A DNA stretch of 64,000 nt from an uncultured Candidatus Saccharibacteria bacterium. Lineage in GTDB: Bacteria > Patescibacteriota > Minisyncoccia > Phycocordibacterales > SW-6-46-9. Positions within the stretch are counted from its first letter, which is position 1, and every line of letters begins with the position of its first letter. The stretch is taken from positions 8,138-72,137 of the forward strand of contig CAZHOI010000002.1 of assembly GCA_964534365.1 (NCBI GenBank), given 5' to 3'. Positions 27,961 to 64,000 of the stretch are shown one piece after another. The notes under the pieces were generated by a model. The model searched no databases. It saw only the letters and a program-made list of their open reading frames with translations, and was not told the DNA's origin. Made by a program: the position numbers and the translations under genes.

Positions 27961-27964
27961 TGCA

Positions 27965-28459: not shown

Positions 28460-28477
28460 TATTTATTAAGTATACAA

Positions 28478-28501: not shown

Positions 28502-28519
28502 AAATGTAATTACTATGAA

Positions 28520-28972: not shown

Positions 28973-28994
28973 TTAATTAATTAATTATATTTTT

Positions 28995-29035: not shown

Positions 29036-29106
29036 TGTTTAATGATCTGATATTAAGTATACGGGGTTTATAAACATGTCCAGAACTCGACTGTGTATAA
29101 CATTGC

Positions 29107-29148
29107 GTAGCACGTAGCACGTAGCACGTAGCACGTAGCACGTAGCAC
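29107..29148. repeat. Heptanucleotide tandem repeat (GTAGCAC)x6, about 135-175 bp upstream of the major pilin start
   Basis: Six perfect copies seen in the sequence. Confidence 0.9.
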
Positions 29149-29479
29149 TATAAACAATAGTTCAAACCGATAAATTAACGACAAATAGTTGGTAGCATTT
29201 AATTCCAGATTGATGAAGTGATAAATTTTGGCAAGAGGCTGCTGAAATATGAGGCATCTAGAAATTTGTGCCGGAGCCTTGTATTAATAAGGTGAACAAA
29301 CAAATTACTGATAAAAATGACAATATTTATACCAGATTGATGAAGTTCTTGATAGCGAGCTAATGTAAGGATAGGAGATTTGGATAAAATGCGCGGCGCT
29401 AGGTTTTTTGGACTAGAGCGGTATTCATTTATACCGCGATATAACAAAAAACTGCAGTAACAAAGCAGTTTGCCAAATC

Positions 29480-30682: not shown

Positions 30683-30685
30683 AAA

Positions 30686-32863: not shown

Positions 32864-33439
32864 ATGAAAGTGCTAGAATTAATAATAATGATACCACGGA
32901 CTTGGCAAGAGGTGTCGGGTAGTTTGTGTACAAGCCTGGTTCGACCAAATCATTTCTACCTAGTTGATTATCAATACCACCAGAAACTGGTAATTAAAAC
33001 TAAATATAGTTTGAATTTAACTGCGGTAAATCAAATCACCAACCTAATTGCTGACGACCTTAATGTTCAGATTCAGGAACTATATCCGCTGGAGCAAAAT
33101 TGGACGATTACGCCAGTGCCACTATATTGGTTATCACGTTTAAAACGACAATTTTGTTTAAATTCAATTATTTGCAAAAAAGTAGCTCATAGATGTGGTC
33201 TAAATTTTGCCAAACTACTGAGCAATACCTCGCCACAAACCCAAGGTCAGTGCCGTGATCGCGCCTCGCGGATTAAAAACGCCCAGCATAAATTCAAGCT
33301 ACGTCGTCAGATTAAGGTACCACGAAATATTATTATATTTGATGATGTCGTTGCCACTGGATCGACCATGAAGACTTGCGAGAAATTGCTGAGGCAAAAA
33401 GGTGCGAAAAATATTATTTGGTTATCGCTGGCCCATTAG
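32849..33439 (+). CDS. comFC: ComF-family phosphoribosyltransferase-domain protein (ComFC-like competence protein); start likely at an internal Met
   Basis: C-terminal PRTase motif IIIFDDVVATGSTMKTC; divergent from pilM. Confidence 0.65.
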   Translation: MQFGHMKVLELIIMIPRTWQEVSGSLCTSLVRPNHFYLVDYQYHQKLVIKTKYSLNLTAVNQITNLIADDLNVQIQELYPLEQNWTITPVPLYWLSRLKRQFCLNSIICKKVAHRCGLNFAKLLSNTSPQTQGQCRDRASRIKNAQHKFKLRRQIKVPRNIIIFDDVVATGSTMKTCEKLLRQKGAKNIIWLSLAH

Positions 33440-33665: not shown

Positions 33666-33752
33666 CGGAGGAAGAGGGATTCGAACCCTCGAGGCCCGTA
33701 AAGGCCTACTTCCTTAGCAGGGAAGCCCATTCGACCGCTCTGGCATTCCTCC
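33666..33752 (-). tRNA. tRNA-Ser (anticodon GCT), class II with long variable arm
   Basis: Minus-strand reading GGAGGAATGCCAGAGCGGTCGAATGGGCTTCCCTGCTAAGGAAG-(long var arm)-CGAGGGTTCGAATCCCTCTTCCTCCG; anticodon loop CT-GCT-AA. Confidence 0.75.
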
Positions 33753-37504: not shown

Positions 37505-37577
37505 TGCGCCCACCAGGACTTGAACCTGGGACCACAGAGGTATAAGCTCTGCGCTCTACCAACTGAGCTATAGGCGC
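37505..37577 (-). tRNA. tRNA with anticodon TAT (predicted tRNA-Ile reading AUA)
   Basis: Minus-strand GCGCCTA-TA-GCTCAGTTGGTAGAGC-G-CAGAG-CTTATAC-CTCTG-TGGTC-CCAGGTTCAAGTCCTGG-TGGGCGC-A; cloverleaf with one G-U in the acceptor stem. Confidence 0.7.
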
Positions 37578-42842: not shown

Positions 42843-43239
42843 GGGGATGACTGGTATCGCCTCGAATAATTGTCAATCCAATGGCCAAACGGAAAACGCT
42901 GCCTACTTCCTTAAACTGGCAGTAACCAATACATGCAGACGAAAACTCTGTAGCGAGCCCATACTTTAATGGTGTTCGCGCATTTGCCTAAGTCGAGTTC
43001 GCTCCTTAGCAATGCCGGATAAAGCCTCTGGCTGACATTACTATGTTTTGTCCGTATCACCTTAATGTCTCGAGTTGGTGATCGTTAATCGCTGACTTTA
43101 AAAACTTAACTCGGATTTAGGATGTATTTGGATATTTGACCTCAACCTAGATCTTAAATTCCCTAACAAATATCCTTGGTTTGGGACACCATAAATTGGC
43201 ATTATTCGAACACGGGGGTTCAATCTCCCCATCTCCACA
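42843..43239 (+). ncRNA. ssrA: tmRNA (ssrA); predicted tag ADENSVASPYFNGVRAFA (resume codon GCA near 42945, stop TAA)
   Basis: 5' GGGGATGA...; 3' tRNA-like end GGGGGTTCAATCTCCCCATCTCCACA pairing with the 5' GGGGATG; internal ORF ending ...AFA-TAA; adjacent smpB. Confidence 0.75.
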
Positions 43240-43252
43240 TTGTAAATCCACG

Positions 43253-46060: not shown

Positions 46061-49000
46061 TTATTCTTCTTCTAATTTCGCAAAAGTTTGATTAGTCAGT
46101 GTAGTTACCGCTGATTGATTCGGGGCCGTACCGCCATGACCGGTGGCAACACCGCCTACTGGCATAACCGCCACCTGATCCCCTAATACTTCACCATCAT
46201 CGTGACGCTGGCGCAATAAATCAGCTAGCCGCTCGAGCATATCGATACGATCGGGGGAAGCAGTCCCTGGAGCAATAGTAGAGGCTCCTAATACCCCACC
46301 CTCATTATTATCATCGTCGTCGTCATCGTCTGAGCCACCAGAGCTACCAGATGAGCTGGTAAAGCTAGTTGCTACTGGGCCACCAGAAGCTGATTCTGTT
46401 TGGTTTGATCCGTCACCAGGAGTATCACCATCATCTGGATTAATTTCACATTCGGCTTCTAGACCAGATACTACCACTATGTCATCACCGCCAGTTACGA
46501 ACAGATCAAATACAATTCCGTCTCCAGCAGTATTTAGTTCAAACGTGTCTGGGGAGTTGAATGTCGAACCTAGCTCCAAGCCCTCAACTGAATCAGGGGT
46601 AATCGTTGGAGTTGATAACAGAGCTCCGCCAGAGAATAGAATCTCGCCGGAAACATTACGTAATTGATCACTGCCGCCAATAAGGGTAATTACCAATTCA
46701 TTATCTGCGTTTAGCACTACCGAGAACTCGCCCTCTTCATCAGCCGTTTCACCCAGTGGCGCAATGTTGACATTGGTGTCGGTCAATACATCGACATTTG
46801 ATTCCACATCGACATCTAATTCAATTTCGGCAAAACATTGATTGTCATTTGGTTCGCCGCCACATTCAACTGCCCCTACTCCGGCAACATCAAATCCGTC
46901 TCGGGTTCCTGGACCAGCGTTTGGACTGGTTATGTCTACTATTTTAATAAAGCTGGCTTCAGGTAGTACTCCTAAATCAAATGTATAATTTGCATTAGGA
47001 TCATTAGTATTGTCAACCGTAGCCACTCCAAGCAGTTCATAGTTTATCCCATCAACTGACGCATAGACTTCGGCTTTTTCTGGGTGATTATTAACGGTTG
47101 GATTACCGTAACTAGTTTCAAACACTCGGATGTCATCACCGGCTACATTCTGCAGCGGTTGTTCAAATTCAATTGTAATATCACCACCTATTCCTAGTGA
47201 ATAGAAGTCGATCGCTTCATCAGGTTGTGAATCTGGACCAGTGGCCTTTGATTCAACTGATCGGTCGGCCGGAACATCGGTTCCATCAGCTCGTTGACCT
47301 TGATTAGCTGATACTACTTCGCCGGCAAAACATTGCAGAACTAGATCAGGATCAGAATTATTACCTTCTTCTTCACACAGATTCTCCTCTAGCAATTGTT
47401 CGTGGGCACCGCCAAGTTTACGATCGCCATAGCGTTGACCGTTAAAGTCTTCGATTAAATCACCATAGAATACATCAATCTGGTAGGCACAAGATGGCAC
47501 ATCAATATTAAAGGTAACGGGTTCACTTGGATCTAGCGTTTCCAGTTCACTATCAAATAATTCCTGAGTATCGATGTCTAGATTATTGTCATTATTAGTT
47601 TTATTTGTATCTTTGTATTCGAACGCTTTATAAGACGCAATTCCGACATCATATACACAGGTATCCGAAGTATTTTCAATTGTTACCATTCCGGTAACCG
47701 GGTCAAAGCCAGTCACAACTAGATTTGATTCGTGATTGGCTTCGCACTGTTCAGTTTGATCTGAATTATTAATTGTGAAATTTTGAGTAAGTCGTATATT
47801 ACTATCATCTTCGTCTTCTACTGGGTTGAAAGCAAAACAGTAATCACCATTATCAAATTGAGTTGAATCGAATTCAGCAGTAAAGATCGTGCCATCAAAT
47901 TGAAAATCATCATCTTGATCGTTTACATTTCCGAACACAGTCGGATTTGAGGCATCACAACTACCCTGCCGCACCGCAAACTTTACTTCATCATCATTAT
48001 CACCGTTTTCGTCCACATAAGTAGCCTCTAGAGTAATAGTTCCCGACACCTCCTCGCCCTCGGATGGATTAGTAATTTCTGATTCAGCTGGCGCATCGTC
48101 ATCACAACTGCCATCTACTGAAGTTTCTGATGATTCTGCTTCTTCACACAACCATGGATTGTAATCAACTTGCTCACCTACTAGGGCGCCATCTGAATCA
48201 GTTTCGCCAAATGGACCAGCAGGACCTTCGGAATCATTCCAATAATTTTCCTCGGCCGACAAAATGTCAGTTTCGCCAGTCGTACCAACATCATAATTAA
48301 CCCCAGCTACTCCTTCAGATTCATCAAAGAAGAAGTTGTTCTGCTCGATCGTCATGGTTGAGACATCAGCATCATTCCCGGTTCTTTTATTAACGCTTAT
48401 TGCTACCGGAGGAAGATTAATCGCCGAGAAATTTTCAAAATCATTTAATCGCACTACAACATTTGGTGTATCCGCATCCAGTCCAATACCAACAGTATAT
48501 GATGCATCCCCTAAATTAGTTATTTCATTATTTTCAACCACCAAATCATTAGTGTCTTCATTTACAGTAATTCCGAATGCACCTTTGGTGTCACCTCCCT
48601 CTATATTTGAAATTTTGTTGTTTAAAATACTTATATTATCGAGCGATTCATCACTAGCTCCTATTAAAATACCCTGAGCGGTATTAGTTAATGAAGTTAA
48701 ATTAGTTATTTCATTGTTTGATACTTCGACATTGCTTCCAGCCTCTAACCAAATTCCAGCAATAGTATCATTTTCTTCATAGCCATCAACAATATTATTC
48801 GTAATTACTACATCGGAATACAGTCCTCCATTATCAGTCAATACAATACCTAGCGCTGGCGAAGGATCGGTTGAACTTTGGGTTACAGTGAAACCATCTA
48901 TCGTCGTATTTGAGGCTTCAATCAACAACCTTCCTTCAATAATTGTAGAGGTAGCACTATTTTCCGATTGAATCGTTAGTTCTTTGTCGACAGTAATAAT

Positions 49001-49627
49001 CTCTGGATATGTCCCATCGTCGACTTCGATCACGTCGCCATCATCAGTACCACAGTCATCAATTGCTTCTTGTATAGTCGTAAAATCCTCACCGGTGTCA
49101 GTGTTTTCTACCGGTAGTGTATCGTTATCAGAGCCAAAATCATCACCTGAACAATCGTCTCCTGGTTCGGTTGTAACAGGAGTTACTGATTCGGCTTGAA
49201 AATTAACCACGATAGGACTTTCAGCCGCTGCATCGCTGTAATCTTGACTAGCAACTTCAGATCCATTTTCAGTAATAAATAGGGTATCTCCGCCATCATT
49301 CCAAGTACCGGAACCACTTAGAGTCGGATCGTCACAAGTCTCGCTTGTCTCACAAAACGTGTATGAGCTACCAGAAGTCAAAACAACGCCAGCTAGACTA
49401 TAAGCATTGTTGTTATTTTCATCGCCAAAGCCGTAATCGCTGAGGTCAACGGTTTCTGAACCATTATTGGTAAATGTAATAGACTCAGGATTAGTGGCAG
49501 TTAAACTAGCCTCAATGTCTTGAGGAGCGGCCATAGCAGTTGGTACCGCAAATCCAGCGGGGGCAAAGGTAGTCGCCAGAAAGGTAAAGGCGGTTAATAA
49601 TGAGAGTAATTTTTTGAATTTGTTCAT
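46061..49627 (-). CDS. Giant (1188 aa) secreted, highly acidic surface protein with right-handed parallel beta-helix (PbH1-like NNxITN) repeats
   Basis: Signal peptide; repeated ...VENNEITNL.. / ..ILNNKISNI.. units; poly-Asp tract; C-terminal Gly-rich tail. Confidence 0.6.
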   Translation of the reverse strand: MNKFKKLLSLLTAFTFLATTFAPAGFAVPTAMAAPQDIEASLTATNPESITFTNNGSETVDLSDYGFGDENNNNAYSLAGVVLTSGSSYTFCETSETCDDPTLSGSGTWNDGGDTLFITENGSEVASQDYSDAAAESPIVVNFQAESVTPVTTEPGDDCSGDDFGSDNDTLPVENTDTGEDFTTIQEAIDDCGTDDGDVIEVDDGTYPEIITVDKELTIQSENSATSTIIEGRLLIEASNTTIDGFTVTQSSTDPSPALGIVLTDNGGLYSDVVITNNIVDGYEENDTIAGIWLEAGSNVEVSNNEITNLTSLTNTAQGILIGASDESLDNISILNNKISNIEGGDTKGAFGITVNEDTNDLVVENNEITNLGDASYTVGIGLDADTPNVVVRLNDFENFSAINLPPVAISVNKRTGNDADVSTMTIEQNNFFFDESEGVAGVNYDVGTTGETDILSAEENYWNDSEGPAGPFGETDSDGALVGEQVDYNPWLCEEAESSETSVDGSCDDDAPAESEITNPSEGEEVSGTITLEATYVDENGDNDDEVKFAVRQGSCDASNPTVFGNVNDQDDDFQFDGTIFTAEFDSTQFDNGDYCFAFNPVEDEDDSNIRLTQNFTINNSDQTEQCEANHESNLVVTGFDPVTGMVTIENTSDTCVYDVGIASYKAFEYKDTNKTNNDNNLDIDTQELFDSELETLDPSEPVTFNIDVPSCAYQIDVFYGDLIEDFNGQRYGDRKLGGAHEQLLEENLCEEEGNNSDPDLVLQCFAGEVVSANQGQRADGTDVPADRSVESKATGPDSQPDEAIDFYSLGIGGDITIEFEQPLQNVAGDDIRVFETSYGNPTVNNHPEKAEVYASVDGINYELLGVATVDNTNDPNANYTFDLGVLPEASFIKIVDITSPNAGPGTRDGFDVAGVGAVECGGEPNDNQCFAEIELDVDVESNVDVLTDTNVNIAPLGETADEEGEFSVVLNADNELVITLIGGSDQLRNVSGEILFSGGALLSTPTITPDSVEGLELGSTFNSPDTFELNTAGDGIVFDLFVTGGDDIVVVSGLEAECEINPDDGDTPGDGSNQTESASGGPVATSFTSSSGSSGGSDDDDDDDNNEGGVLGASTIAPGTASPDRIDMLERLADLLRQRHDDGEVLGDQVAVMPVGGVATGHGGTAPNQSAVTTLTNQTFAKLEEE

Positions 49628-51416: not shown

Positions 51417-52790
51417 TTATAATTCAAGCACTTGTTTCAATTCAGGCGTCAGAACCTGGGCTTTGATTTCATCACTATTAATCAACAGGTTTGAAAATTC
51501 CAGGGCGGTTTTAGGCTCGGACAAAACTACGGCAATAAATTTGGTTCCGTAATCAGCGGCAGTTTTGGCAAATTCATATAAATTTTGTTGGTCTTTGTGT
51601 GAAGAATAGGACAACAAACTCTCGACCGCGGCTCGGACCTTGATTCGGCGCCCTTTGATACGAACCTGTTTATTACCTTCCAACATTTGTCGCCCTACCG
51701 TTCCTGGCGCTTGGTAGCCGATGAATAAAATAGTGGTATCAGTCTGATCCAAATATTCCAATTCATGAAATAGCACGCGCCCAGCGTGGGACATACCCGA
51801 GCCGGCGATTATTATTTTTGGACCCCCCACCCCTTTGATTGCCTGTGACTCTTGTTTGGTTTTAGTAATTTCCAGACCGGGAAAATCAAAAATGTTATCA
51901 CCACTGTTAATGTCAGACTGAACGGAATCTTTGAAATATTTGCTAGAACGGCGATAAATTTCTAACACTTTGATTGCCAGTGGTGAATCCAAAAATACTG
52001 GGATCGAGGGTAATTGTCCGGATTCAACCAATTCGTTTAATTCATACAGCAGCATCTGGGTACGTTCCAGCGAGAACGCGGGAATAATAATTGCACCTCC
52101 ACGATCGATGGCGCGCTGTAGGATTTCATTTAATTTTTGCTGCCGAACAGCAGTATCATCATGATTGCGATTGCCATACACGGCTTCCATAATTAAATAT
52201 TCTGAATCAGTGATTGATTCGGTATTACGCAATAGAACTGATGGTGAATTACCTAGATCCCCGGTAAAAGTCACCACATTATCGGGGGTGGTTATTTTGG
52301 CCATAGCCGAGCCCAGAATATGACCGGCATCAAAGTATTCAACCGTAGTTAGCTGATCGGATAATTTAAACGGACTATGATATTCAAAAGTTTTCCATTT
52401 GCTAAAGGCCGATTGTAAATGCGAATCATCCCACAATGGCTCGACCTCCATGCGTTTGGCATCGTGGCGCATAATCTGCAAACCATCAGCCAACATCACT
52501 TGGGCTAAATCTTTGGTTGCCTGGGTGGAATAAATCTGGCCTTTGAACCCTTCGGCAATTAATTTACCGATTAAACCAATATGATCCATATGCGCATGGG
52601 TCACAATTAAATCACCAACGGCACTAGGGTCATAGGCAAAAGGTTGCCAATTACGGCGTTCTAATTCGTCAGAACCCTGTGTCAACCCACAATCAATTAG
52701 CATTTGGTGACCAGCGGCGGTTTGCAGCATAAAATTCGACCCAGTAACTGCATCCGCACCTCCGTAAAATTTAATTTGATCAGTGGTCAT
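51417..52790 (-). CDS. MBL-fold beta-CASP family hydrolase (RNA-metabolising metallo-beta-lactamase, RNase J/CPSF-like)
   Basis: HxHxDH motif VTHAHMDHIG; beta-CASP-like middle domain; about 457 aa. Confidence 0.65.
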   Translation of the reverse strand: MTTDQIKFYGGADAVTGSNFMLQTAAGHQMLIDCGLTQGSDELERRNWQPFAYDPSAVGDLIVTHAHMDHIGLIGKLIAEGFKGQIYSTQATKDLAQVMLADGLQIMRHDAKRMEVEPLWDDSHLQSAFSKWKTFEYHSPFKLSDQLTTVEYFDAGHILGSAMAKITTPDNVVTFTGDLGNSPSVLLRNTESITDSEYLIMEAVYGNRNHDDTAVRQQKLNEILQRAIDRGGAIIIPAFSLERTQMLLYELNELVESGQLPSIPVFLDSPLAIKVLEIYRRSSKYFKDSVQSDINSGDNIFDFPGLEITKTKQESQAIKGVGGPKIIIAGSGMSHAGRVLFHELEYLDQTDTTILFIGYQAPGTVGRQMLEGNKQVRIKGRRIKVRAAVESLLSYSSHKDQQNLYEFAKTAADYGTKFIAVVLSEPKTALEFSNLLINSDEIKAQVLTPELKQVLEL

Positions 52791-53698: not shown

Positions 53699-54307
53699 CT
53701 ATTCTAAAATGCCGTCGAGGTTTACGTCGTATAAAATCCTTTCTTGTACTAGGCGATAATCCAAGACCTTGTCTTCCGATAGCCACAAATCAATTTCGCG
53801 CTCGGCCTCGTCTGGAGCATCCGAACAATGAATCAAATTACGAACCGCGCGATCATCAATGGCAGCAATATTGTATGAATCCAACGTCAAGTCACCTCGG
53901 ATAGTACCAACATCTGATGTCGCTGGTTCGGTTCCCCCTACTAATTTCTTGACCACAGCAACAGCTTGATTACCCTCCAGCACCATTACTATAACTGGAC
54001 CTGCCGTCATAAACTGTACTAGAGCGCGAATAATGTCTTTACCAAATTCAGCGTCAGCTCGAGATTCATCGTATTCCTTACCCGCATTCTTTAAATCTTC
54101 CTTGATCCCCGCTCCTTTGCGTTCAAACCATTCATTGTCTTTGTCATAATGTTTCCACAATTTGTCACTGTCAAGCATCGCCATATTTAAATAGGCAATT
54201 TTTAGCCCAGCCCGTTCAAACCGGCCAATAATCTCTCCTATTAATGACCGCTGAACTCCATCTGGTTTTACAATTACAAAACTGCGTTCCTTTTTTACGT
54301 GTTGCAT
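53699..54307 (-). CDS. ndk: Nucleoside diphosphate kinase with an about 50-aa internal insertion
   Basis: FVIVKPDGV..., ...NLIHCSDAPDEA (NxxH[G/C]SD active-site His); 202 aa versus the typical about 140. Confidence 0.8.
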   Translation of the reverse strand: MQHVKKERSFVIVKPDGVQRSLIGEIIGRFERAGLKIAYLNMAMLDSDKLWKHYDKDNEWFERKGAGIKEDLKNAGKEYDESRADAEFGKDIIRALVQFMTAGPVIVMVLEGNQAVAVVKKLVGGTEPATSDVGTIRGDLTLDSYNIAAIDDRAVRNLIHCSDAPDEAEREIDLWLSEDKVLDYRLVQERILYDVNLDGILE

Positions 54308-54357: not shown

Positions 54358-55767
54358 CTATCGTTTAACTGCACTGGTAGCCAAACCATTGAAATTTGTC
54401 GAGTTTCGACTAATTGCGCGGGCCCGTCCATATGAATTTTGCTGTTTCATCATCGACCACGGGGAAGCAGTCCTGATTTTTGATTCCCCTTTTAGAACCG
54501 CTTGTTGATACTGTTTCATGGCAATAACATCCTTGAGAGCGGTTTGATTTTCGCTATCGCCAGCAGAATTAGCCATCAATGATTCTTCCAGCCGCAAGAG
54601 CAAGGCGGCATAATCTTTATTTGGTTGCATTAACTTATCATTTCGCTCCAGAACTTCATTGACAGTATAGTAAACCAATTGGGGGTCATAATTGCCGGAT
54701 GATAATTCATGGCTAAGAGTATCAATTTCAGACCTCGAAGCTGATTGCGACATAAACAGTTTCGCCAAATCAGCCGCCTGACGCACGGTCATTTTTTCGA
54801 ACTCAGATACTGGGCGCTCGTTGGTACTAGCAGAAACAGGATCTACAGTGGCCTCGTGATTGTTTGCAGACTTGTTTTCTTTATATGAAGTAGATTTGTC
54901 ATCGGCGGAAACTTCTGTTTCTGAACTCGAGCCACCTTCTTCTGCCACATCCCCTTCAACTACTAAATTAGGTTTTTCCTTATTGTAATCAGTTACTAAA
55001 TCATCAATCAATTCAACATCGGGCTTGTTTGTCTCTGGCTCAACTTCTTGTCTTGAGGTTTCCTCCATCAACTTGCCCTCATTCGAGTTTTTTTCCGATT
55101 GGGGATTGCGCAATCCTTTACTATCTTGATAACTTTGTTGATATCTAGCGCGGCGTTTGTCTTCGGCTGTTTTGCCATCTAGTTTATCCATCAATAATTG
55201 AGTCAAATTAGTCAACTTGTCCAACCCTTCCTTTACTGTTTCTAACCCATCCTCTAGTGATTTCAGTTTTTCAATTGCCATCGCTGTCATCTCTTCATCG
55301 GATTCATCAGAAACCGCTAAATCCTCGGCTAAACTAGCCTCGGCTTCGCCAAGGTCAGTTTTTTGTTCTGAATTGGACCATCGATCTCTAATCCCCTTTA
55401 AAAACCGAGCCTTTTTACTACGTTGCTCAATCGCCTTTTGTTTCAGTGCCTGCGCCTCAACATCCTCAGAATCATCGGGCAATAATCCCGCTTCTCTTAA
55501 AAGCTCTACATCCTTATCATCAAGCTTGCTTTGATATTCTAAAAACAGTTTACCATCAGGCATTGATAGATTGTTTAAAATAGCATCAGCATTATTCTGT
55601 GCTGCCTGAGTTTCCTGAGTTGCCTGAGTCGCCTCGGCTGCCTCGACTGATAAACCTGCGGAGAGGTTAGAATTTTCAATTGCTGAGGTTGCTAAATCAG
55701 AATCCACGATACTATCGCGATTAGTTTGGTCGTCCCCAGAAGTTAAATTATGTTCAAATGATGACAT
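54358..55767 (-). CDS. Acidic, coiled-coil-rich cytoplasmic protein (hypothetical), operon member
   Basis: 469 aa; no TM; Glu/Asp/Ser-rich; 2-bp gap to the next gene. Confidence 0.5.
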   Translation of the reverse strand: MSSFEHNLTSGDDQTNRDSIVDSDLATSAIENSNLSAGLSVEAAEATQATQETQAAQNNADAILNNLSMPDGKLFLEYQSKLDDKDVELLREAGLLPDDSEDVEAQALKQKAIEQRSKKARFLKGIRDRWSNSEQKTDLGEAEASLAEDLAVSDESDEEMTAMAIEKLKSLEDGLETVKEGLDKLTNLTQLLMDKLDGKTAEDKRRARYQQSYQDSKGLRNPQSEKNSNEGKLMEETSRQEVEPETNKPDVELIDDLVTDYNKEKPNLVVEGDVAEEGGSSSETEVSADDKSTSYKENKSANNHEATVDPVSASTNERPVSEFEKMTVRQAADLAKLFMSQSASRSEIDTLSHELSSGNYDPQLVYYTVNEVLERNDKLMQPNKDYAALLLRLEESLMANSAGDSENQTALKDVIAMKQYQQAVLKGESKIRTASPWSMMKQQNSYGRARAISRNSTNFNGLATSAVKR

Positions 55768-55768
55768 A

Positions 55769-56062
55769 TTAAATATTTAGCTTTTTACGCAACTCGGCCA
55801 AACGCTCTTCATCAGACATCGGTAAGTTGGAGGCATCACTGGATTTAGCTGATGGAGTGGGTGAAGTAGCTGGGGCAGCATCCAAATTATTAGACGGAAT
55901 CGAATCGGGCTTTTCGGAATTTTGTCGGTAGGCGGCAATTTTGGCGATCAATTCATCGTATTCAGCCATTAATTTTTGATACTGTTGCTTGTCCTCATCG
56001 GTAAGTGAACTCATGTAAAAAGTATAACAGACAAGTCGCTGGAAGTAGGTGTGGATTATCAA
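55769..56062 (-). CDS. Small coiled-coil protein (hypothetical), operon member
   Basis: 97 aa; tight spacing. Confidence 0.4.
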   Translation of the reverse strand: MIIHTYFQRLVCYTFYMSSLTDEDKQQYQKLMAEYDELIAKIAAYRQNSEKPDSIPSNNLDAAPATSPTPSAKSSDASNLPMSDEERLAELRKKLNI

Positions 56063-56068
56063 AATTTT

Positions 56069-58948
56069 TTAGAAAAATGGCGAGGCGGCGAATGGGTCTG
56101 GGCCGGCGGCTTTCTTTTCGTAGCGTTTCTTTATCTCGGCCTCGACTTCTGATCGAGGTCGACCGAATTTAAGATATGACAATTCTTTTAATGCATCCAA
56201 ATGTTCAGTAGAACCTTCTGGGGGTGGCAGGGTTGCCATCGAAAACGGCTTGACCGGGGTTCCCACTGCCAACATCTTCATATAAGCGTTCCAGTTGGGA
56301 ATGTTGGCAATGTCTCGTTGCGAGAATATTGGACCCAACATCTTTTCAAACACTTCGGCATCTTCGGTAGAGACACGAAATACGGCCATTGATCCGACGT
56401 TACCGAATACCGCATTACGAATTGATTCCTCTAGCTGTTTAATGTATTGGTGCGCTGCAATTAGTCCCAGATTATATTTTCTAGCTTCGGAGAGTATGAC
56501 TGCAATCGAATCAGTAGTAACGTTCTGAAATTCGTCAATATATAAATAAAACGGTGGCAAGTCCTGACCAAATGAATCTACCCGCGACATCGCTGCCATG
56601 GTGATCTTGCCCACAATTATTAGTCCTAATAAATTCGAGTTGATATCCCCTAACCGCCCTTTAGCCAAATTTACCAGCAAAATCTTGCGATCATCCATGA
56701 TCTCGCGGAATTTTAGGCTGGACTGTTCTTGGGCAATGATTGGACGCATATAATCATTGGACAGAAAGCCATCAAATTTCGAGGTAATATACGGCACAAT
56801 ATTTTCAAGTGATGCCTCACCACCAGCTTTTCCTGCAATTTCGTTCCAAAATTGATTGACGATAAAATTATTAGATTTGGCTAATTTGTCCTTGCGAAAT
56901 TGTTCATCGGCTAATACTCGCGATATATCTAGCAAAGTATTACCTGATGCCGGGTCTTCCATTACCAAACCGGTCGCATTACGAAAATACTGTTCAAACA
57001 TCGGCCCGCCAGCAGTTTTCATGTCGAATAATTTGTTGAAAATCCCTAGCAGCTCGTTAATAACAAATGTTTTCTGTTCCGGAAAGAGCTCGTCATATTC
57101 CAGCATATTCAACGCCATCGGCCGGGCCAAATGCGATGGATCAAAATAAATGACATCTTCGTATCTGTGGGGTGGGATATTAGATAAAATATATTGCACA
57201 TCTGATCCATGTGGGTCGATAAAACAACAACCCTCACCTGCCTGGATATCTTGCAAAATCATGTTGGTTAACATCACCGATTTACCGGTACCAGTTTGTC
57301 CAATCACATACATATGCCTAACTCGATCCTTTGGGGTCATGTGGATGTCCAACTCCGTGCCGCGATGTTTGTTGACGCCCAATAGAATTCCATCTTTTGG
57401 CATATCAATGGGTGCCGGTGCGGTAACTGATCGTTGTTCTTTGATCTCGCGCGCCCCTTCTAATGATCTAACCGGAAAATGATATAGGGTTGATAGTTCA
57501 GTTAAATTCAGTGGCATCGCCTGTTTATCATTAAATAACCGAAATGAATACTGATGCAGAAATTCATCCAACCGGCGATCATTAACGTCCCGAAACGCGA
57601 TTTCATTACCCAGCGGATTTTCGAATTGACGAAAGGCTGATTTTAGAATGGTTAATAGCTCACCCGCGCGGTGTCTGGTGGGGGCTGATACCACAATTCG
57701 AATATTGACATGACTCAATGGCGAGGCAATTTTTTTCTGCAGAGCCTCGATTGAAGCTTGTCGGCGCGCCTGGGCTTCGGTAGTTTCGTCTTTACTATCA
57801 TCTTTGTCAGGATCGGAAATTACGTCTTTGATGACGTCTTTGCCCACCTTCCAGAATTCGCGCACCAGTGACGTATTGATCGCATCTTTAATGTCCTCAC
57901 CGCGCTCGATCTGTTTCATCGCATGTTCATAAGACTTACGTTGACTCTCTGGCGCCTCGCGGAATATCACCTGAATAGCACAGCCTTCACCTACTTCGGC
58001 CAGTTTTGAAAACGCATTTAAAATAACCGACAGTGGATCGTGGTCAAATTCATCATAGGTTTTTAGAGGGAAAGCAGCCTCGTCATCAACCTGGGCGGTT
58101 GACCCCACTGTTACACCCTCGTCGTTGAAGACATTGTAGTCATTTTTGACCACTTCGATTCTGGCATTGGTAAAAATCGACTGGACCTGGCGTTCAAATA
58201 ATCCCCGCCGGGCATCCGGTACTGCACAGTAAAATGATATCTCTTCGCCGACGTGTGATACGGCAATTTCAAATGAAAAGTATTCTCGAATTCGACCTTT
58301 GTCTGAACCGTGTGGCAGTAGTCCCGCAAATACTTGCTCCATTGACGACACCAAATTTTTAAGCTCTTTCTTATCAGACTCATCATTGGCTGGTGGCAAT
58401 ACTACCTCATATAATGTCATGTGCAGGGCGCGATACAATGGCATCGAATCTTTTAGTCCCTGAATTTGATAACCGCCTTTTAAATATTGCACCAAAAATC
58501 GATGGAAGTCGTCCTCGACATGAGGGTTGTCTAATTGATCAACCACCGACAGAGCGTTTTTGATTCCCCGCTGTTGCATCACCTTAACCAGCTCGGCCAT
58601 TTGCCAATCGTGTTCTTCGGGTTCCAACTCGAGCCCTAATTGCCTAATCTCTTGCTCGCTAGTTTGATAGTCATTATGCAATACATTTTCAGCCGGCGAT
58701 GCCTGATACTCGCGTGTTACCGCTGCGGCGGCCTCATTACCCCTTTCATGTGCTGCCGTAGGGCCAGATCGTTCGTAATTACCCTGTTGCAACTGAGCCT
58801 CGCGTTCGGCAATTTGTTGGCGCAAATACGCCACCTCTTCCTCGGGAGTCGAGAATTTCGGTTGTTCGCTGGCACTTGATTGCGCGGTTTTTTCGATACC
58901 CAAATCGGACCTAATCGAATCCAATGAACTACTTTGATGCAATGCCAT
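56069..58948 (-). CDS. Large P-loop ATPase of the VirB4/VirD4(TraG)/HerA-FtsK superfamily (AAA_10/DUF87-like) with about 530-aa N-terminal non-ATPase region
   Basis: Walker A VIGQTGTGKSVML followed by FIDPHGSD; Walker B PFYLYIDEFQNV; ARKYNLGLIAAHQ (RK..G...Q motif). Confidence 0.7.
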   Translation of the reverse strand: MALHQSSSLDSIRSDLGIEKTAQSSASEQPKFSTPEEEVAYLRQQIAEREAQLQQGNYERSGPTAAHERGNEAAAAVTREYQASPAENVLHNDYQTSEQEIRQLGLELEPEEHDWQMAELVKVMQQRGIKNALSVVDQLDNPHVEDDFHRFLVQYLKGGYQIQGLKDSMPLYRALHMTLYEVVLPPANDESDKKELKNLVSSMEQVFAGLLPHGSDKGRIREYFSFEIAVSHVGEEISFYCAVPDARRGLFERQVQSIFTNARIEVVKNDYNVFNDEGVTVGSTAQVDDEAAFPLKTYDEFDHDPLSVILNAFSKLAEVGEGCAIQVIFREAPESQRKSYEHAMKQIERGEDIKDAINTSLVREFWKVGKDVIKDVISDPDKDDSKDETTEAQARRQASIEALQKKIASPLSHVNIRIVVSAPTRHRAGELLTILKSAFRQFENPLGNEIAFRDVNDRRLDEFLHQYSFRLFNDKQAMPLNLTELSTLYHFPVRSLEGAREIKEQRSVTAPAPIDMPKDGILLGVNKHRGTELDIHMTPKDRVRHMYVIGQTGTGKSVMLTNMILQDIQAGEGCCFIDPHGSDVQYILSNIPPHRYEDVIYFDPSHLARPMALNMLEYDELFPEQKTFVINELLGIFNKLFDMKTAGGPMFEQYFRNATGLVMEDPASGNTLLDISRVLADEQFRKDKLAKSNNFIVNQFWNEIAGKAGGEASLENIVPYITSKFDGFLSNDYMRPIIAQEQSSLKFREIMDDRKILLVNLAKGRLGDINSNLLGLIIVGKITMAAMSRVDSFGQDLPPFYLYIDEFQNVTTDSIAVILSEARKYNLGLIAAHQYIKQLEESIRNAVFGNVGSMAVFRVSTEDAEVFEKMLGPIFSQRDIANIPNWNAYMKMLAVGTPVKPFSMATLPPPEGSTEHLDALKELSYLKFGRPRSEVEAEIKKRYEKKAAGPDPFAASPFF

Positions 58949-58971
58949 TAGGTACTAGTGTAGCAGACCTC

Positions 58972-59946
58972 CTAATTCAGAGAAGAGGTATTAATTAAAT
59001 CAATTATCTGCCTACGGTAATTAACAGCATTAACAGGATCAAAATCTGATCCAGATTCGTCTATAAGCCATTTTTGAACCAGTCCATATTCTAGCTGGTG
59101 ATCTCTGCGTAATGCTTCAGGATTATTTAAATAGTCCTTAACTATATCCGCATACCATTCAGTCAAAGCCATCAGTTTATCTAGACTTTTGTCATCACTA
59201 AATTCTTCTCTTACTCTTTCACTATATTCGCTCCTGTAACGATTAGGTTGCTGGTAAACTATTAACGCTTCATTAAGAAAAGCGACTCGTTGCTCATAAG
59301 TTAGATATCGCGCACCGTTCCAATCAGTTTTATGGCCTAATTCGTGTGCAATAGTTTGAAATATCGTTTCAGCCTTTGTAACACCTTTTGTATTATAGTC
59401 ATTTATTAATTCATTCATAGGAACAGAAATTACGATCGAATCTGCTGATAAAGTAACCCTACCATATTCGAACTGATAGCTATCGGGGCCAGTTATCTCA
59501 ATACTAGATTCGATATAAGCTATAACATCAATATTGCCATTCACGACTGATTCAGGTAAAGAGGAAGAGCCGATTAAGTTTTGTACTAACTTTTTATTAA
59601 TGCCAATTCTTTCAAACCCTTGTATTTCTGGTTCTTCTGGAAATTTTTCCTTTGTGTCCTCAACTCTTTCAACCTCCGAACTAATGTAGCCAAGAGTTAA
59701 AATTGATCCCAAACGTCCTAAGCGTTCATTCATATTCTTACTATAAAACTGAGTCTGTTCTTCCGTTAATTGAGCCCCTGCATGATCTTCATCGAAGCCC
59801 TCCATTGCTGCTTTGGTTGTTCCCTCACAGCCAGTTGCACCAATTGTCAACAACCCAAGTGCAAGTATACGCATACGATAAGAGACCGATTTGAAAAATT
59901 TTGGTATTTTACCTTCTTTAGTATTAGACTGATTGAAAACTTCCAT
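58972..59946 (-). CDS. Secreted lipoprotein with zincin HExxH metallopeptidase motif
   Basis: Signal/lipobox ...LLTIGATGCEG; TIAHELGHKTDWNG. Confidence 0.55.
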   Translation of the reverse strand: MEVFNQSNTKEGKIPKFFKSVSYRMRILALGLLTIGATGCEGTTKAAMEGFDEDHAGAQLTEEQTQFYSKNMNERLGRLGSILTLGYISSEVERVEDTKEKFPEEPEIQGFERIGINKKLVQNLIGSSSLPESVVNGNIDVIAYIESSIEITGPDSYQFEYGRVTLSADSIVISVPMNELINDYNTKGVTKAETIFQTIAHELGHKTDWNGARYLTYEQRVAFLNEALIVYQQPNRYRSEYSERVREEFSDDKSLDKLMALTEWYADIVKDYLNNPEALRRDHQLEYGLVQKWLIDESGSDFDPVNAVNYRRQIIDLINTSSLN

Positions 59947-59962
59947 AAAGTTAATTATTTGC

Positions 59963-62797
59963 CTAACTCACGTAAGCATTAATATCAATACTATTTTCTT
60001 CTGCTACTGCATTAATTCGATCCAACAAATTTTCATAGTTTTCAGTCATACTTTCTGCATTTAAATTAGCACTACTAGGATTTTGCATTTCAGTAACAGT
60101 TTCTGGATCAAAGCCAAAGAGACCAAATATTGAAACCCTATTACCTTCAAACATAACTTGTGGAGCAGATTGAGTTATATCTGGATTATTTAACCATTCA
60201 GTAATATCAGGCATAACATTATAAATTACATTTCGAATAGTCTCGGGATTCATACGATTAGCAAATCGATTAGACCAAAATTCAAGAATTTCATCGTAGT
60301 GGTCAATCCGATCAGTCGTAGCAGCATTTAAAATTTCTTCTAATTTTTCATATTCAGTGTTTTCTAGAAATAAGTTTAGTTCAGGGTTAGATAGTTGATC
60401 TAGTTCCGGTACGTCATCTGGGATATTAAATACACCGTCATCTAACCCAACAATATTACCTTCAGTATCTACTGAAATTCCGTTAGAGGCTTTATCGGGA
60501 ATCATAATATCGCCATCGGTATCTACATAACTACTGCCCAGTTCCTGACCAACCTTGTAATCAGCTTCAGGTGCATCTTGCCATACCTCGTCACTAAGCT
60601 CTTCTGGGGTAAAATCGCTTCCACTGGCTTGCTGCCATAAAGTATCTACCTCGCCGTCAGCATGAACTAGCCTAATTTCGTCATCAATTAATTCAAGTTT
60701 GTCGCCAGGATGGATCACCACGCTCTCGTGTTCAAATTCAGGACGATAGCCGCCCAGTTTTTGCGCCAAGGCTTCACGATCCATGTCCAGCAGTTCTTGA
60801 TATTGCAATCTTTGCGCTGGTTCTAGTTGTCTGATTTGATCTTGCAGGTCACCTGACGCTTCGATAAAGGTGCTAGCTGAACCACTGCCGTCAATCCCAT
60901 CATAGTCAGTCCACTGATCTACATTAACTACCAATGGCATGTGCGAATCTGGCACATTTGGCGCATTGTTTGGACCATCTGCCCGATCAACCAAGTCATC
61001 TATAATATCATCTTCAGTTATTGGTGAACCTGTGGGATCGGGCAAATCTTCTGAACTTACTAAATTACCTACCCCATGAGTAACAAATGGCAAAGCTGCG
61101 GCCAATCCTCCTACGCCAGCTGCGGCCAACCTTCTTTTAATTCTATTTGAGCGTTCAATGGAAACTGAATCAGCCTCGTCTTCGACCAGCGAGTCAAGCT
61201 CGCGGTCAAAATCTTCCATAATAACTGCAAATTTCTCTTGCTCGTCCGCTGTTTTAACCTTTTCTCGCAAAATTTCTTGGCGTTTTTTCAATATTGCCGC
61301 AACTACCGCTTGATCTAATTTACTATTTTCTAGGCTAGACTCAACAAAAGCTGTTTTGCGTTCAATTTGCAACGCTTGCAGTCTAGCGGCTTCTTTTAGG
61401 ACTTCTTCATCACCTAGTTTGCCGACATAATCATTGTATACAGACTCTTCAGAGATAGTTTGATTTGGTTTGAAACTTTTTCTGATCTCTTTGACAATTT
61501 CATCTGTTTTACCTCGGTGCGACCAGCGACCAAATTGTTCTAGGAGAGATTCGGTCGCTAAATATCCTCCAACCCCCCGTGATAAAGCGCTTACCGCGGC
61601 TCGTAACGCGGTTAGAGGCGCAAAAAAGAATCCGGCAACACCCAAGGTGCCACCTATTGCATAGCGCGTCTTTCTAGCCCCAGAACTAAACCATTTATTT
61701 CTAAACTTGGTCAGCAATGAATCATCGGCGTTTTCAGTAATAAACAAATCAACTTGACTTTGTTCTTCTTCCAAAAACTTTTGCACCAGATCTTGGGCGG
61801 CCTCCTGATTTAGCTTATCTCTAGCTGATTCAACTTTTTTGGTTTGTTGATTCAGTTGCTCGTTAATCTGAGTCAGATCAGTTTTTAATGAATTTAGCTT
61901 ATCTTCATCAATGTCTTCGCCATTTGTTTTGCTTAATTCCAATTTAGCAATCTCGTCTTCGAGTTTGATTTTATTTTTTTCCAACTCTACTAATTTGTAC
62001 CTCTCGGACTCAAAACTGTCCCTGTCATCAGCACCGCCGGCTTTTACCTCAGCAGCGATGGCCACACTCATCGCCTGGTAATACTCTTGTCCTAGCTGTT
62101 CATTCTTTTCTGCTTGCTCGGCCCTTTTATTACCCCACCATCCTAGTGGTAGCAGTCTTCTATGCTCTATCAGTGCTTGAAAATATCTTTTTCTTTTATT
62201 ATCTAAAACTTTTCTAAGCCCACCCATGTCAGCCAAAGATTCTGCCCTATTAGGATCAGATGCCCCATCAGCAGAGACTACTTCTAATTTGTCTTCGTCT
62301 GCTTTGTTCTTTTCATCTTCATCTTTATCCTCTGCAGTAGCTGCCGGCTCATCCTCAATCTCGCTACTTACTACTTCATCTGATTCTTTGTTAATTTCTT
62401 TGTCATTCCTGTTTGCTTTATCATCTTCATCCTCTAACTTGTTAGATTCTGTAAATTTTGCCTCTTGTTCAAATTTTTTTACTGAATCTGCCACGTCTTT
62501 TGTCAGCTTAGTTATTTCTCCGGTGTTGATACCACTAAAAAGCAAAGAGTCGCTGACGTCTCCCAAGATTAGTTGATTTGGTGAAAAAGTACCTTTCTTA
62601 AGCCTCTCAGTGACTGCGTCAAGCAGCCTCTCCTTTGCTTTATCCATTGATGAAGTTACCTCGGACAGGTTAGCTTTTAGATCTAAACTTTCCTCCCTAT
62701 CTGTTTTTTTTTCTTTAGAATTTTCTCTCTCTAAAACCCCTCCTCCTTGAGATTTAAATCTTTCAAGACCTGGTTTTTTAGGACCCTTTTCTGACAT
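59963..62797 (-). CDS. Very large (944 aa) acidic coiled-coil protein with two internal hydrophobic segments (hypothetical), operon member
   Basis: Hydrophobic stretches YAIGGTLGVAGFFFAPLTALRAAV and LAAAGVGGLAAALPFV; long heptad-like Glu/Lys regions. Confidence 0.5.
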   Translation of the reverse strand: MSEKGPKKPGLERFKSQGGGVLERENSKEKKTDREESLDLKANLSEVTSSMDKAKERLLDAVTERLKKGTFSPNQLILGDVSDSLLFSGINTGEITKLTKDVADSVKKFEQEAKFTESNKLEDEDDKANRNDKEINKESDEVVSSEIEDEPAATAEDKDEDEKNKADEDKLEVVSADGASDPNRAESLADMGGLRKVLDNKRKRYFQALIEHRRLLPLGWWGNKRAEQAEKNEQLGQEYYQAMSVAIAAEVKAGGADDRDSFESERYKLVELEKNKIKLEDEIAKLELSKTNGEDIDEDKLNSLKTDLTQINEQLNQQTKKVESARDKLNQEAAQDLVQKFLEEEQSQVDLFITENADDSLLTKFRNKWFSSGARKTRYAIGGTLGVAGFFFAPLTALRAAVSALSRGVGGYLATESLLEQFGRWSHRGKTDEIVKEIRKSFKPNQTISEESVYNDYVGKLGDEEVLKEAARLQALQIERKTAFVESSLENSKLDQAVVAAILKKRQEILREKVKTADEQEKFAVIMEDFDRELDSLVEDEADSVSIERSNRIKRRLAAAGVGGLAAALPFVTHGVGNLVSSEDLPDPTGSPITEDDIIDDLVDRADGPNNAPNVPDSHMPLVVNVDQWTDYDGIDGSGSASTFIEASGDLQDQIRQLEPAQRLQYQELLDMDREALAQKLGGYRPEFEHESVVIHPGDKLELIDDEIRLVHADGEVDTLWQQASGSDFTPEELSDEVWQDAPEADYKVGQELGSSYVDTDGDIMIPDKASNGISVDTEGNIVGLDDGVFNIPDDVPELDQLSNPELNLFLENTEYEKLEEILNAATTDRIDHYDEILEFWSNRFANRMNPETIRNVIYNVMPDITEWLNNPDITQSAPQVMFEGNRVSIFGLFGFDPETVTEMQNPSSANLNAESMTENYENLLDRINAVAEENSIDINAYVS

Positions 62798-62798
62798 A

Positions 62799-63110
62799 TT
62801 AAACCTTTACCGCCCCATAAGTTTCTAATAGCTGTTTTTTCAAGTTGGCTAATATGTTGGCTGCCATTGTTTCTATTTCGGGAAGCTGTTTTTTCAAAAA
62901 TAAATAGATCTCTCCATTACTAGAGTCATTATCAATCATTTTATCAAGTCGCTCTGCCTGATCGTCATTTAACCGGGAATAAACCTGTACCAACAATCTT
63001 TGCTCAGCTACCTGAGACATTTTGGTCGCTAATTGTTCCTGCTGATCTGTGGGTAGATCTTGCAATTCTAGTGCTTCTAAAAGATTTATATTGAGATAAT
63101 CAGTGATCAT
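62799..63110 (-). CDS. Small hypothetical protein, operon member
   Basis: 103 aa; 2-bp gap. Confidence 0.4.
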   Translation of the reverse strand: MITDYLNINLLEALELQDLPTDQQEQLATKMSQVAEQRLLVQVYSRLNDDQAERLDKMIDNDSSNGEIYLFLKKQLPEIETMAANILANLKKQLLETYGAVKV

Positions 63111-63124
63111 ATGAAACTATTATA

Positions 63125-63940
63125 TCAGAGCCAATTAGCAATTTTGACCAGCTCCTCGATAGCGTGCTGCTTGACACTGCTATCCTCTAAAGAGTCATAG
63201 ATACCCAATAGAATTAATATGTGATCGCGATTGATCTTTTTTTCGAAACTTGCTTGTTGGCCGCCACGCAGTTTTGCTCCGGTTACTTCATCTAATAATT
63301 GATTTGCTTCATTTTCTGATATCACCTCCTGCTGCACTGCCAATCTAGCCGCCTGACTAGCTAGCAACCTTAAAATAGCTCTGCGCTCTATTGTTTCTTC
63401 GAAACGTTTCTTTTTCTCGGGCGATAAAGGTTTTGGTACACTTTTGGACTCATTTATTGCTTCTAATATCTTCACTAAATTTTTTCTAGCTTCATGCCGG
63501 CTAATCTCATCAATTAACGGTAACTCTGCGTAATCTTTTATTACAACTAAAGGATCATCGGCAAATCTGTTTGCCAAATCAGGATAGAGTACTAATCTAG
63601 TTTTAAAATATTTAATAACTTCCCGTAAATCTTTAGTTTTATTTGTTGAAAGCACATTAATTAATTGATCGAGATTTAATTCTGATGCTTGTCGCCAAAT
63701 ATCACCATTAACTGGTGTAGGATAATTATTCTCAAAACCACTTTTGACTGAATCAGCTTTTTTTTGTGATTTAACTTTTTCATCCTCGGGCGGCAAGCCA
63801 CCTTTTATACGATTAATTAGCTCCTGCGGCCTTTCTATAAACTCAGCTAGGTCTAAAACCGACTCAATTCTACCTCTTCTAGCTTCAATGGTTTTTGTCT
63901 TTACCCAGGACCGAATCTGATCCTGATCGTTTTTACTCAA
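63125..63940 (-). CDS. Hypothetical protein, operon member
   Basis: 271 aa; 14-bp gap; the operon continues past the window end. Confidence 0.45.
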   Translation of the reverse strand: MSKNDQDQIRSWVKTKTIEARRGRIESVLDLAEFIERPQELINRIKGGLPPEDEKVKSQKKADSVKSGFENNYPTPVNGDIWRQASELNLDQLINVLSTNKTKDLREVIKYFKTRLVLYPDLANRFADDPLVVIKDYAELPLIDEISRHEARKNLVKILEAINESKSVPKPLSPEKKKRFEETIERRAILRLLASQAARLAVQQEVISENEANQLLDEVTGAKLRGGQQASFEKKINRDHILILLGIYDSLEDSSVKQHAIEELVKIANWL

Positions 63941-64000
63941 ATCATCAATTATTCTCTCAACTGGCTTTGGAAGCGTAAAGGGATTATGAACTTTTTGTAT

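Follow-up and report, generated by a model that had tools for sequence, protein, structure and literature searches.

A coupling-protein-like ATPase with a DUF8128 domain, a core gene of Parcubacteria-type Patescibacteria, and the fast-evolving genes around it

At one end of a 64,000-nucleotide (nt) stretch of contig CAZHOI010000002.1, from an uncultured Candidatus Saccharibacteria bacterium (hereafter “the window”), seven minus-strand genes lie tightly packed around a P-loop ATPase of 959 amino acids (aa). Overall, our analysis indicates that this cluster is neither a self-contained secretion system nor a mobile element, and represents a variable gene set around one ancient core gene, the ATPase. 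With somewhat better than even confidence, we read the latter as a domesticated conjugation-type ring ATPase that docks via a VirB4-like N-terminal domain and moves a polymer towards or through a conduit encoded elsewhere. This reading starts from what could be observed, i.e., the fold, motifs, conservation and synteny of the ATPase, and the recurrence of two partner genes beside it. The ATPase gene and its domains are laid out as follows:

56069..58948, minus strand: 959-aa ATPase with DUF8128 and a type IV coupling protein (T4CP)-like P-loop domain, the conserved core of the cluster
58664..58948, minus strand: N-terminal extension, residues 1–95, with a low-confidence start followed by two predicted helices
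57401..58663, minus strand: DUF8128 N-terminal domain, residues 96–516, with a predicted VirB4 N-terminal-domain-like fold
56120..57400, minus strand: C-terminal RecA-like ATPase domain, residues 517–943

All motifs listed for this protein in an earlier note, made by reading the letters of the window, are present: Walker A GQTGTGKS at residues 550–557 (57278-57301), DPHGSD at residues 578–583, Walker B FYLYIDEFQN at residues 800–809 (56522-56551), and the RK...AHQ motif RKYNLGLIAAHQ at residues 823–834 (56447-56482). The placement of the protein in the VirB4/VirD4/HerA clade was likewise borne out, with sequence profiles and structure comparisons in agreement. In Pfam, the ATPase matched TrwB_AAD_bind (8.7e-7, above the cutoff, a short match), DUF87 (1.4e-5) and TraG-D_C (2e-4). 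NCBIfam TraD/VirD4 models matched at 1e-7 to 1e-11, far under their full-length cutoffs, and a profile of 28 orthologues run against solved structures returned TrwB and DotL as best matches. We assign the C-terminal domain to the HerA/FtsK/VirB4/VirD4 superfamily, within which coupling proteins (TrwB, DotL) are its closest relatives by sequence. The N-terminal region, previously described as being of no recognizable family, does have one: it is assigned to Pfam PF26449 (DUF8128) in an identical protein (P0001) and in all 120 listed homologues, an assignment taken from precomputed annotation, the model not being reported by our own Pfam scan.

In the predicted structure, the best fold match of the DUF8128 region is the VirB4 N-terminal domain, not HerA, which is matched by the ATPase core only. 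Overall, 359 of 420 TrwB residues align, and the model carries a helical insertion of ~130 residues at positions 624–752, a candidate for the all-alpha domain that coupling proteins have within their nucleotide-binding domain. In the AlphaFold2 (AF2) model, the predicted local distance difference test (pLDDT) score is <50 at residues 1–28 and 57–67, and the start of the protein is probably disordered. No hydrophobic segment was found in the N-terminal 700 residues of the window ATPase and six orthologues, i.e., no N-terminal membrane helices. VirB4 sequence models fail on the protein (TIGR00929, 19.5 bits vs a 643-bit cutoff; AAA_10, E 0.071), and hhalign detected no similarity to canonical monoderm VirB4 (probability ~1%). 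We conclude that the ATPase resembles VirB4 in its two-domain architecture and T4CPs in the sequence of its P-loop region.

Family members of ~800 aa align only from query residue ~170, and are without the N-terminal extension and the first part of DUF8128. Two invariant motifs, PEEHD and HxEDDFHRF, lie at residues 110–151 (58496-58621), in a small helical region that opens the DUF8128 stretch and is aligned neither by these ~800-aa members nor by the plasmid and phage relatives described below. This region could be a metal- or partner-binding site.

The ATPase is widespread, with >1,486 homologues, the best 120 of which are full length at 52–55% identity; an exhaustive search yielded 20,364 cluster representatives at E ≤ 1e-3 and 5,067 at E ≤ 1e-30. 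As for phyletic distribution, a check proposed in the earlier note, at least 597 GTDB species carry an orthologue (one genome scanned per species), with about half at a position between map and ndk. All 80 orthologue genomes that we inspected were Parcubacteria/Paceibacteria-type metagenome-assembled genomes (47–54% identity). The gene order in distant relatives is ribosomal spc operon-secY-adk-map, ATPase, ndk-DUF2238-β-CASP nuclease, and divergent L20-L35-IF3, and the window carries the identical downstream half (ndk-DUF2238-β-CASP-L20/L35/IF3). When the inspected loci with enough flank were counted, NDK was found downstream in 32 of 61 (within 400 nt in 19), Map upstream in 31 of 64, and both in 24 of 52, while the β-CASP metallo-β-lactamase gene was syntenic with the ATPase in 36 of the 80 loci. 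Many relatives carry the ATPase alone between map and ndk. Since the map/ndk context is spread across most ATPase identity clusters, with orthologues forming one group, these sequence comparisons suggest that it is the ancestral position. The possibility that two ancient paralogues stand behind the loci without map/ndk was also considered; identity clustering suggests lineage-specific rearrangement and not two clades.

Three relatives, L007, L008 and L009, encode ATPases that are 78, 75 and 57% identical to that of the window, compared with 70–76/50% for NDK, L20, IF3 and β-CASP. By this measure, ATPase conservation equals or exceeds that of these proteins, i.e., it is at housekeeping level, and the gene is, as far as such alignments can tell, a strongly conserved, vertically inherited core chromosomal gene of Parcubacteria-type Patescibacteria. 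More distant Patescibacteria members (35–45% identity) adjoin gyrB-gyrA, or ComFC and a type IV pilus cluster. At BLAST level, no relaxase, Replic_Relax, integrase, VirB4 or gyrase gene was found near any of the 80 orthologues.

Among the gyrase-linked members, DUF8128 ATPases at 35–37% identity lie directly upstream of gyrB(-gyrA) (L094 3776-8945, L095 8001-21237); one gyrB-linked ATPase is 2,006 aa long, with a C-terminal extension of ~1,200 aa, and one of these gyrB-linked clusters comprises 336 member sequences. In relatives L093 and L030, genes for a type IV pilus, along with one resembling ComFC, lie right beside the ATPase orthologue.

Such surroundings could also suit a cytoplasmic HerA/FtsK-like motor acting on DNA or RNA that is scavenged or the cell's own, with no secretion channel, e.g., in chromosome segregation or resolution, in end resection, or in feeding the β-CASP nuclease, with nucleotides then passing to Ndk/Adk. 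Consistent with this, the ATPase is without membrane helices, has HerA as a top match and is conserved at housekeeping level; it is syntenic with ndk and the β-CASP nuclease gene, with adk upstream (besides which cmk and pyrH are also found in L007/L009), and its more distant members directly precede gyrB-gyrA. However, adk-map after secY is the general bacterial order, and part of the synteny may thus carry no functional meaning. The N-terminal domain is VirB4-like, not a HAS-barrel, there is no NurA-like partner, and the ATPase is nearest in sequence to coupling proteins and to ATPases of mobile elements that occur with type IV secretion system (T4SS) or Replic_Relax genes. A link to the membrane is suggested by the recurrent partner that carries hydrophobic segments. 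On balance, we regard a purely cytoplasmic motor as unlikely, albeit the strongest of the alternatives.

The same distribution bears on a role in HerA-type anti-phage defence or as a conflict module. The PADLOC mad8 model (4e-14) and weak HerA models do match the ATPase domain, and a Bradyrhizobium homologue of the C-terminal domain sits among CHAT and TPR genes. Yet a near-universal syntenic distribution with housekeeping conservation is the opposite of patchy defence spread, and no nuclease, Sir2 or methylase effector partner was found with Pfam or PADLOC. We therefore rejected this reading because of the distribution of the gene, and consider it very improbable. The homologue in question is a 708-aa protein of the Bradyrhizobium sp. 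131 plasmid p131_1 (L100 6104-8230), 34% identical over the ATPase C-terminal domain only, in a conflict-system-like context of CHAT-domain and TPR genes.

Beyond Patescibacteria, phrog_5156 matches the ATPase over nearly its full length (2.9e-78). With tblastn, both domains (residues ~190–950) could be aligned at ~22–27% identity to proteins of the Bacillus phages SPO1 (gp27.4), phage G (gp156) and PBC1, and both-domain members were also found in small Bacillus plasmids, Clostridium botulinum plasmids and Streptomyces. Matches in haloarchaeal, Sulfolobus and proteobacterial plasmids were to the C-terminal domain only. Against a Bacillus subtilis plasmid DUF87 protein (NZ_CP032854 WP_121549396), hhalign gave a probability of 99.8% (E 5e-28, 648 columns). 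In none of these plasmid and phage relatives does the alignment reach the first ~185–200 residues of the window ATPase. On plasmid NZ_CP032854 (L091 7842-11401), the ATPase gene is followed by Replic_Relax (PF13814) and then by a Tcp/VirB4-type conjugation module; in SPO1 (L092 5890-9427), the gene next to gp27.4 is gp27.3, a Replic_Relax protein. The C. botulinum plasmid homologue comes after a TrbC/VirB2 pilin gene, and the phage G homologue after a “VirB-like” gene. Because the mobile-element relatives are paired with Replic_Relax/T4SS genes, the ancestral setting of the family would be monoderm mobile-element DNA-transfer machinery, and the Patescibacteria gene has lost these partners. Since the nearest relatives outside Patescibacteria are in Bacillus plasmids and phages beside such genes, a domesticated conjugation-type motor is the simplest reading. 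To our knowledge, none of the plasmid or phage DUF8128-DUF87 ATPases has been experimentally characterized.

A two-gene module of a DUF8128-type ATPase and Replic_Relax is thus common to a lytic Bacillus phage and a small plasmid, and may be an unrecognized coupling-protein/relaxase pair. MOB-suite types plasmid NZ_CP032854 as non-mobilizable despite its Tcp/VirB4-type conjugation module.

These distant plasmid and phage homologues would also fit a degenerate integrative and conjugative element (ICE), as the earlier note had offered, or a prophage remnant. Against this, the window cluster includes no integrase, relaxase, Replic_Relax, VirB4, VirB6 or VirB8 gene nearby; the genes on either side are conserved housekeeping genes whose order is shared with distant relatives, and the ATPase tracks housekeeping protein divergence. 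The G+C content of the cluster (0.38–0.44) is that of the rest of the window, and scans of the window revealed no composition shift, tRNA or repeat boundary at the cluster. With a conserved chromosomal gene at a fixed housekeeping position and of ordinary composition, we rejected a decayed mobile element on the basis of synteny, and see next to no chance that it is correct.

The remaining genes of the cluster, together with ndk, are as follows:

53699..54307, minus strand: ndk, 202 aa, conserved downstream neighbour of the ATPase
54358..55767, minus strand: 469-aa acidic protein gene (open reading frame (ORF) list)
55772..56014, minus strand: 81-aa small hydrophilic protein gene (public-contig gene call; listed as a 97-aa ORF, 55769-56062)
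58972..59946, minus strand: 324-aa putative lipoprotein gene, a lineage-specific insertion
59963..62797, minus strand: 944-aa acidic protein gene
62799..63110, minus strand: 103-aa DUF5663 protein gene, a recurrent ATPase neighbour
63125..64000, minus strand: 3' part of a gene that continues beyond the window (frame open to the edge) and encodes at least 722 aa

The seven minus-strand ORFs and their packing are real, with intergenic gaps of 1–23 nt, although two of the lengths first given needed correction. What was listed as a “271-aa” gene is cut off by the edge of the window, and encodes at least 722 aa on public contig L001, which is identical over the region. The 97-aa ORF is probably a shorter gene of 81 aa with its start at an internal ATG, as called on public contigs. 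Contig extension, another proposed check, could lengthen the former gene and went no further: its reading on L001 begins within a (DVE)n repeat in its coding sequence, where 10 or more copies follow one another in perfect tandem (L001 1-100), and all nine public contigs with the locus break at this repeat. In L007, the equivalent region begins after map. At the other end, only 50 nt separate the 469-aa gene from ndk on the same strand, so that transcription may continue past 54358, in a unit of more than seven genes that possibly includes ndk. A promoter and terminator consensus scan of the cluster detected sites no more commonly than in shuffled sequence, with no convincing boundary.

Two of the neighbours recur beside the ATPase. 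The 103-aa protein matches DUF5663 (PF18908, 24.5 bits vs a gathering cutoff of 23.7, E 4e-5, profile positions 1–81 of 84), and a DUF5663 homologue lies beside the ATPase in eight other loci (L005, L007, L008, L009, L039, L064, L074 and L090), which differ in gene arrangement, with four or more arrangements represented. The order is DUF5663, large protein, ATPase in L007, L008 and L009, and ATPase, 862–997-aa protein, DUF5663 in L064, L074 and L090; DUF5663 is downstream in L005, and divergent with a 1,367-aa protein in L039. Because this adjacency persists through rearrangement, it provides the main evidence of a functional link. The second neighbour, the 944-aa protein (isoelectric point 4.45, D+E 21%), is the acidic protein for which two hydrophobic segments had been reported, and both could be located:

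61901-62797, minus strand: acidic N-terminal third of the 944-aa protein
61583-61663 and 61058-61129, minus strand: hydrophobic segments, residues 379–405 and 557–580
59993-60955, minus strand: C-terminal domain of the 944-aa protein

Homologues of 536–1401 aa adjoin the ATPase in L007, L008, L009, L015 and L046. DUF5663 and the large protein are only 26–41% identical to their L007/L008/L009 counterparts where aligned. The 944-aa protein has no Pfam, PHROG or PADLOC family. A search with the full protein returned no homologue, probably because acidic low-complexity words swamped candidate selection, and its non-acidic part yielded only two distant database matches. Comparison with the large ATPase neighbours in L064, L074, L090, L044 and L055 by BLAST, jackhmmer and hhalign was negative or insignificant.

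The other four genes are more restricted. In the 324-aa protein, HELGH is found at residues 201–205 (59332-59346), LNEA at residues 224–227 (59266-59277), and a candidate lipobox, LLTIGATGC, at residues 32–40. We take the HELGH…LNEA spacing to resemble the HExxH-x18-E/LNEG pattern of M1 gluzincins. The description of this gene as a HExxH zincin lipoprotein holds for its motif and candidate lipobox, while the Peptidase_M1 match is weak and below cutoff (E 0.0048, 17 bits vs 27.7). No homologue of it was found in L007, L008, L009, PDB or plasmids. The acidic protein of at least 722 aa has no homologue in related loci, even in the 75–78% identical relatives, and neither it nor the 324-aa protein has a match in Pfam above cutoff, PHROGs or PADLOC. 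Counterparts of the 81-aa protein, 28–40% identical, occupy the same position in L007 and L008, with none in L009. The 469-aa protein is conserved only in its C-terminal ~150 aa (54361-54819): residues 317–469 share 46–47% identity with a 418-aa protein at the same position in L007, and no counterpart was found in L008 or L009, nor any family match. Overall, partners evolve several times faster than the ATPase in the L007/L008/L009 comparison, and the map-ndk interval is filled with extra genes in the clade of the window. By sequence, the neighbours are mostly fast-evolving, lineage-specific genes accumulated around the ATPase.

This gene content can be set against the proposal that the seven genes jointly encode a self-contained apparatus of a new, T4SS-like kind, used for export or transfer in interaction with the host. 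In such an apparatus, the acidic giants would serve as structural components or as substrates, and the HExxH lipoprotein would act either as an effector or as a protease in maturation. The packing on one strand is tight, the DUF5663-large protein-ATPase trio is kept in the clade of the window, one of the gene products combines a signal of lipoprotein type with a zincin motif, and Patescibacteria depend on unusual envelope machines (PMC12857230). However, four of the six partners are missing from relatives with ATPases 57–78% identical, the ATPase stands alone at the same locus in many genomes, and family scans detected no polytopic channel, pilin, VirB6/VirB8-like or peptidoglycan hydrolase gene in the cluster, whose members besides the ATPase diverge much faster. 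What survives of the seven-gene apparatus is the recurrence of DUF5663 and the large protein. Its coherence had been overstated, as the HExxH and the at least 722-aa proteins are without counterpart in relatives 75–78% identical, whereas the observation that the partners resemble no VirB or Tra family was upheld in Pfam, NCBIfam, PHROG and PADLOC. We consider a complete apparatus within these seven genes improbable.

Returning to the domesticated conjugation-type motor, it would act as follows. The soluble ring-type ATPase would assemble as a hexamer and dock at the cytoplasmic membrane face via DUF8128, as the VirB4 N-terminal domain does on VirB3/VirB8. ATP would then drive a polymer, most likely nucleic acid, towards or through a membrane conduit encoded elsewhere, either the Patescibacteria T4SS or another channel. 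In the lineage of the window, the putatively co-transcribed DUF5663 and 944-aa proteins would be the likeliest membrane partners.

Several points weigh against this reading. No T4SS gene was found among the scanned large genes of the window or, at BLAST level only, within ±6 kb of the 80 orthologues. The structural inferences come from AF2 models of moderate confidence (pLDDT ~76). Many genomes carry the ATPase without an adjoining DUF5663 or large protein, i.e., these two are not obligatory or are encoded elsewhere, and homology between the two groups of large neighbours could not be demonstrated (hhalign probability 20%). In addition, a T4CP homologue of Southlakia epibionticum, not necessarily of the DUF8128 family, is reported as non-essential (PMC12102498); the Southlakia transposon-sequencing paper makes no mention of a coupling protein.

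Patescibacteria make up a large share of bacterial diversity and cannot make their own nucleotides. A further, rather doubtful possibility is that the DUF8128 ATPase is a cytoplasmic motor that pulls host RNA or DNA in through a T4SS- or pilus-type conduit. The neighbourhood of adk (with cmk and pyrH in some relatives), ndk and β-CASP would then mark a supra-operon for nucleic-acid uptake and salvage, with DUF5663 and the large proteins acting as adaptors at the membrane that are specific to particular lineages. Feeding on host RNA has been described for a cultivated member, with an uptake mechanism that its authors call unresolved (bioRxiv 10.64898/2026.06.21.733656), and the ATPase would, if the uptake reading is true, provide a molecular handle on it. 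More generally, a protein that is as conserved as ribosomal proteins, holds a fixed position, and has lost its anchor and relaxase partner is a candidate for a core function in transport or nucleic-acid handling. Its VirB4-like DUF8128 fold, Replic_Relax/T4SS-paired relatives and two recurrent partners make it a concrete target for biochemistry and genetics.

Elsewhere in the window, a type IV pilus cluster spans 19700-32900 on the minus strand, with PilB (22329-24068), PilC (29480-30682), PilT (30686-31750) and PilM (31751-32863); many small ORFs at 20–28 kb within it may be pilins. A GC-rich stretch at 10–16 kb (0.46–0.50 vs ~0.40) contained no rRNA that we could find. No Pfam family was found for three large genes that follow one another on the minus strand (687, 781 and 677 aa; 13160-19800), nor for a 200-aa gene at 12303-12905. 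Beside IF3, a 1,188-aa protein (46061-49627, minus strand) shows a weak Lamin Tail Domain match; its counterparts at the same position in L007/L008 are barely alignable, making it another fast-evolving giant at a conserved locus. A tmRNA gene (42843-43240, plus strand) and tRNA genes (33666-33752 and 37505-37577, both minus strand) were detected, none near the cluster. Precomputed Pfam matches of the β-CASP metallo-β-lactamase protein (51417-52790) include Anti-Pycsar_Apyc1, and the NDK of the window is long, at 202 aa.

Among known systems, the ATPase shares with type IV coupling proteins (TrwB of R388, VirD4, TraD, DotL) a RecA-like domain with Walker A/B motifs and a T4CP profile match. It differs from them by a VirB4-like N-terminal domain of ~420 aa in place of N-terminal transmembrane helices, by the absence of relaxase/T4SS linkage in Patescibacteria (operon, scanned large window ORFs, ±6 kb of 80 orthologues, BLAST), and by being a conserved chromosomal gene, not a mobile-element gene. 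With VirB4/TrwK, it shares the predicted N-terminal domain fold and the C-terminal RecA-like ATPase domain, but, unlike VirB4 (TrwK/TraC/CagE), it fails VirB4 profiles and has no adjacent virB2/virB3/virB6/virB8-type genes in its cluster (Pfam/NCBIfam families). The VirB4 clade already published for Patescibacteria is located near dnaA/dnaN and not in the map-ndk interval (PMC12102498), and we rejected an identity with this already described VirB4 on both its profile scores and its genomic context. Compared to HerA (HerA-NurA), there is neither a HAS-barrel nor a NurA-like gene in the cluster, and compared to FtsK/SpoIIIE, neither an FtsK gamma domain nor a membrane anchor. The DUF8128-DUF87 ATPases of Bacillota plasmids and phages have the same full architecture, i.e., DUF8128 followed by a DUF87/T4CP-like P-loop domain, but are carried by mobile elements, where their partners are Replic_Relax and/or T4SS genes that are absent here.

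A survey of Patescibacteria counted 5,713 VirD4-like T4CP homologues in 2,918 of 3,035 genomes, 148 of them near virB4 (Quiñonero-Coronel et al. 2025, PMC12102498). Its authors found the Patescibacteria T4SS usually near dnaA/dnaN and without relaxase, proposed that T4CPs were perhaps exapted, and left the function of the T4CP homologues open (PMC12102498). The window ATPase is very probably among the homologues counted there. Our analysis also shows that “T4CP homologues” counted in genome surveys are not evidence of conjugation. A search of the accessible literature returned nothing on DUF8128 and, among the papers listed, no mention of DUF87 or DUF5663; a transcriptome paper on an archaeal parasite was likewise of no help. 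To the best of our knowledge, relative to this survey and the searchable literature, what is new is the VirB4 N-terminal-domain fold predicted for DUF8128, the lack of a membrane anchor, the fixed place between map and ndk together with conservation at housekeeping level, the partnership with DUF5663 and the large protein, and the Replic_Relax-linked relatives in phages and plasmids.

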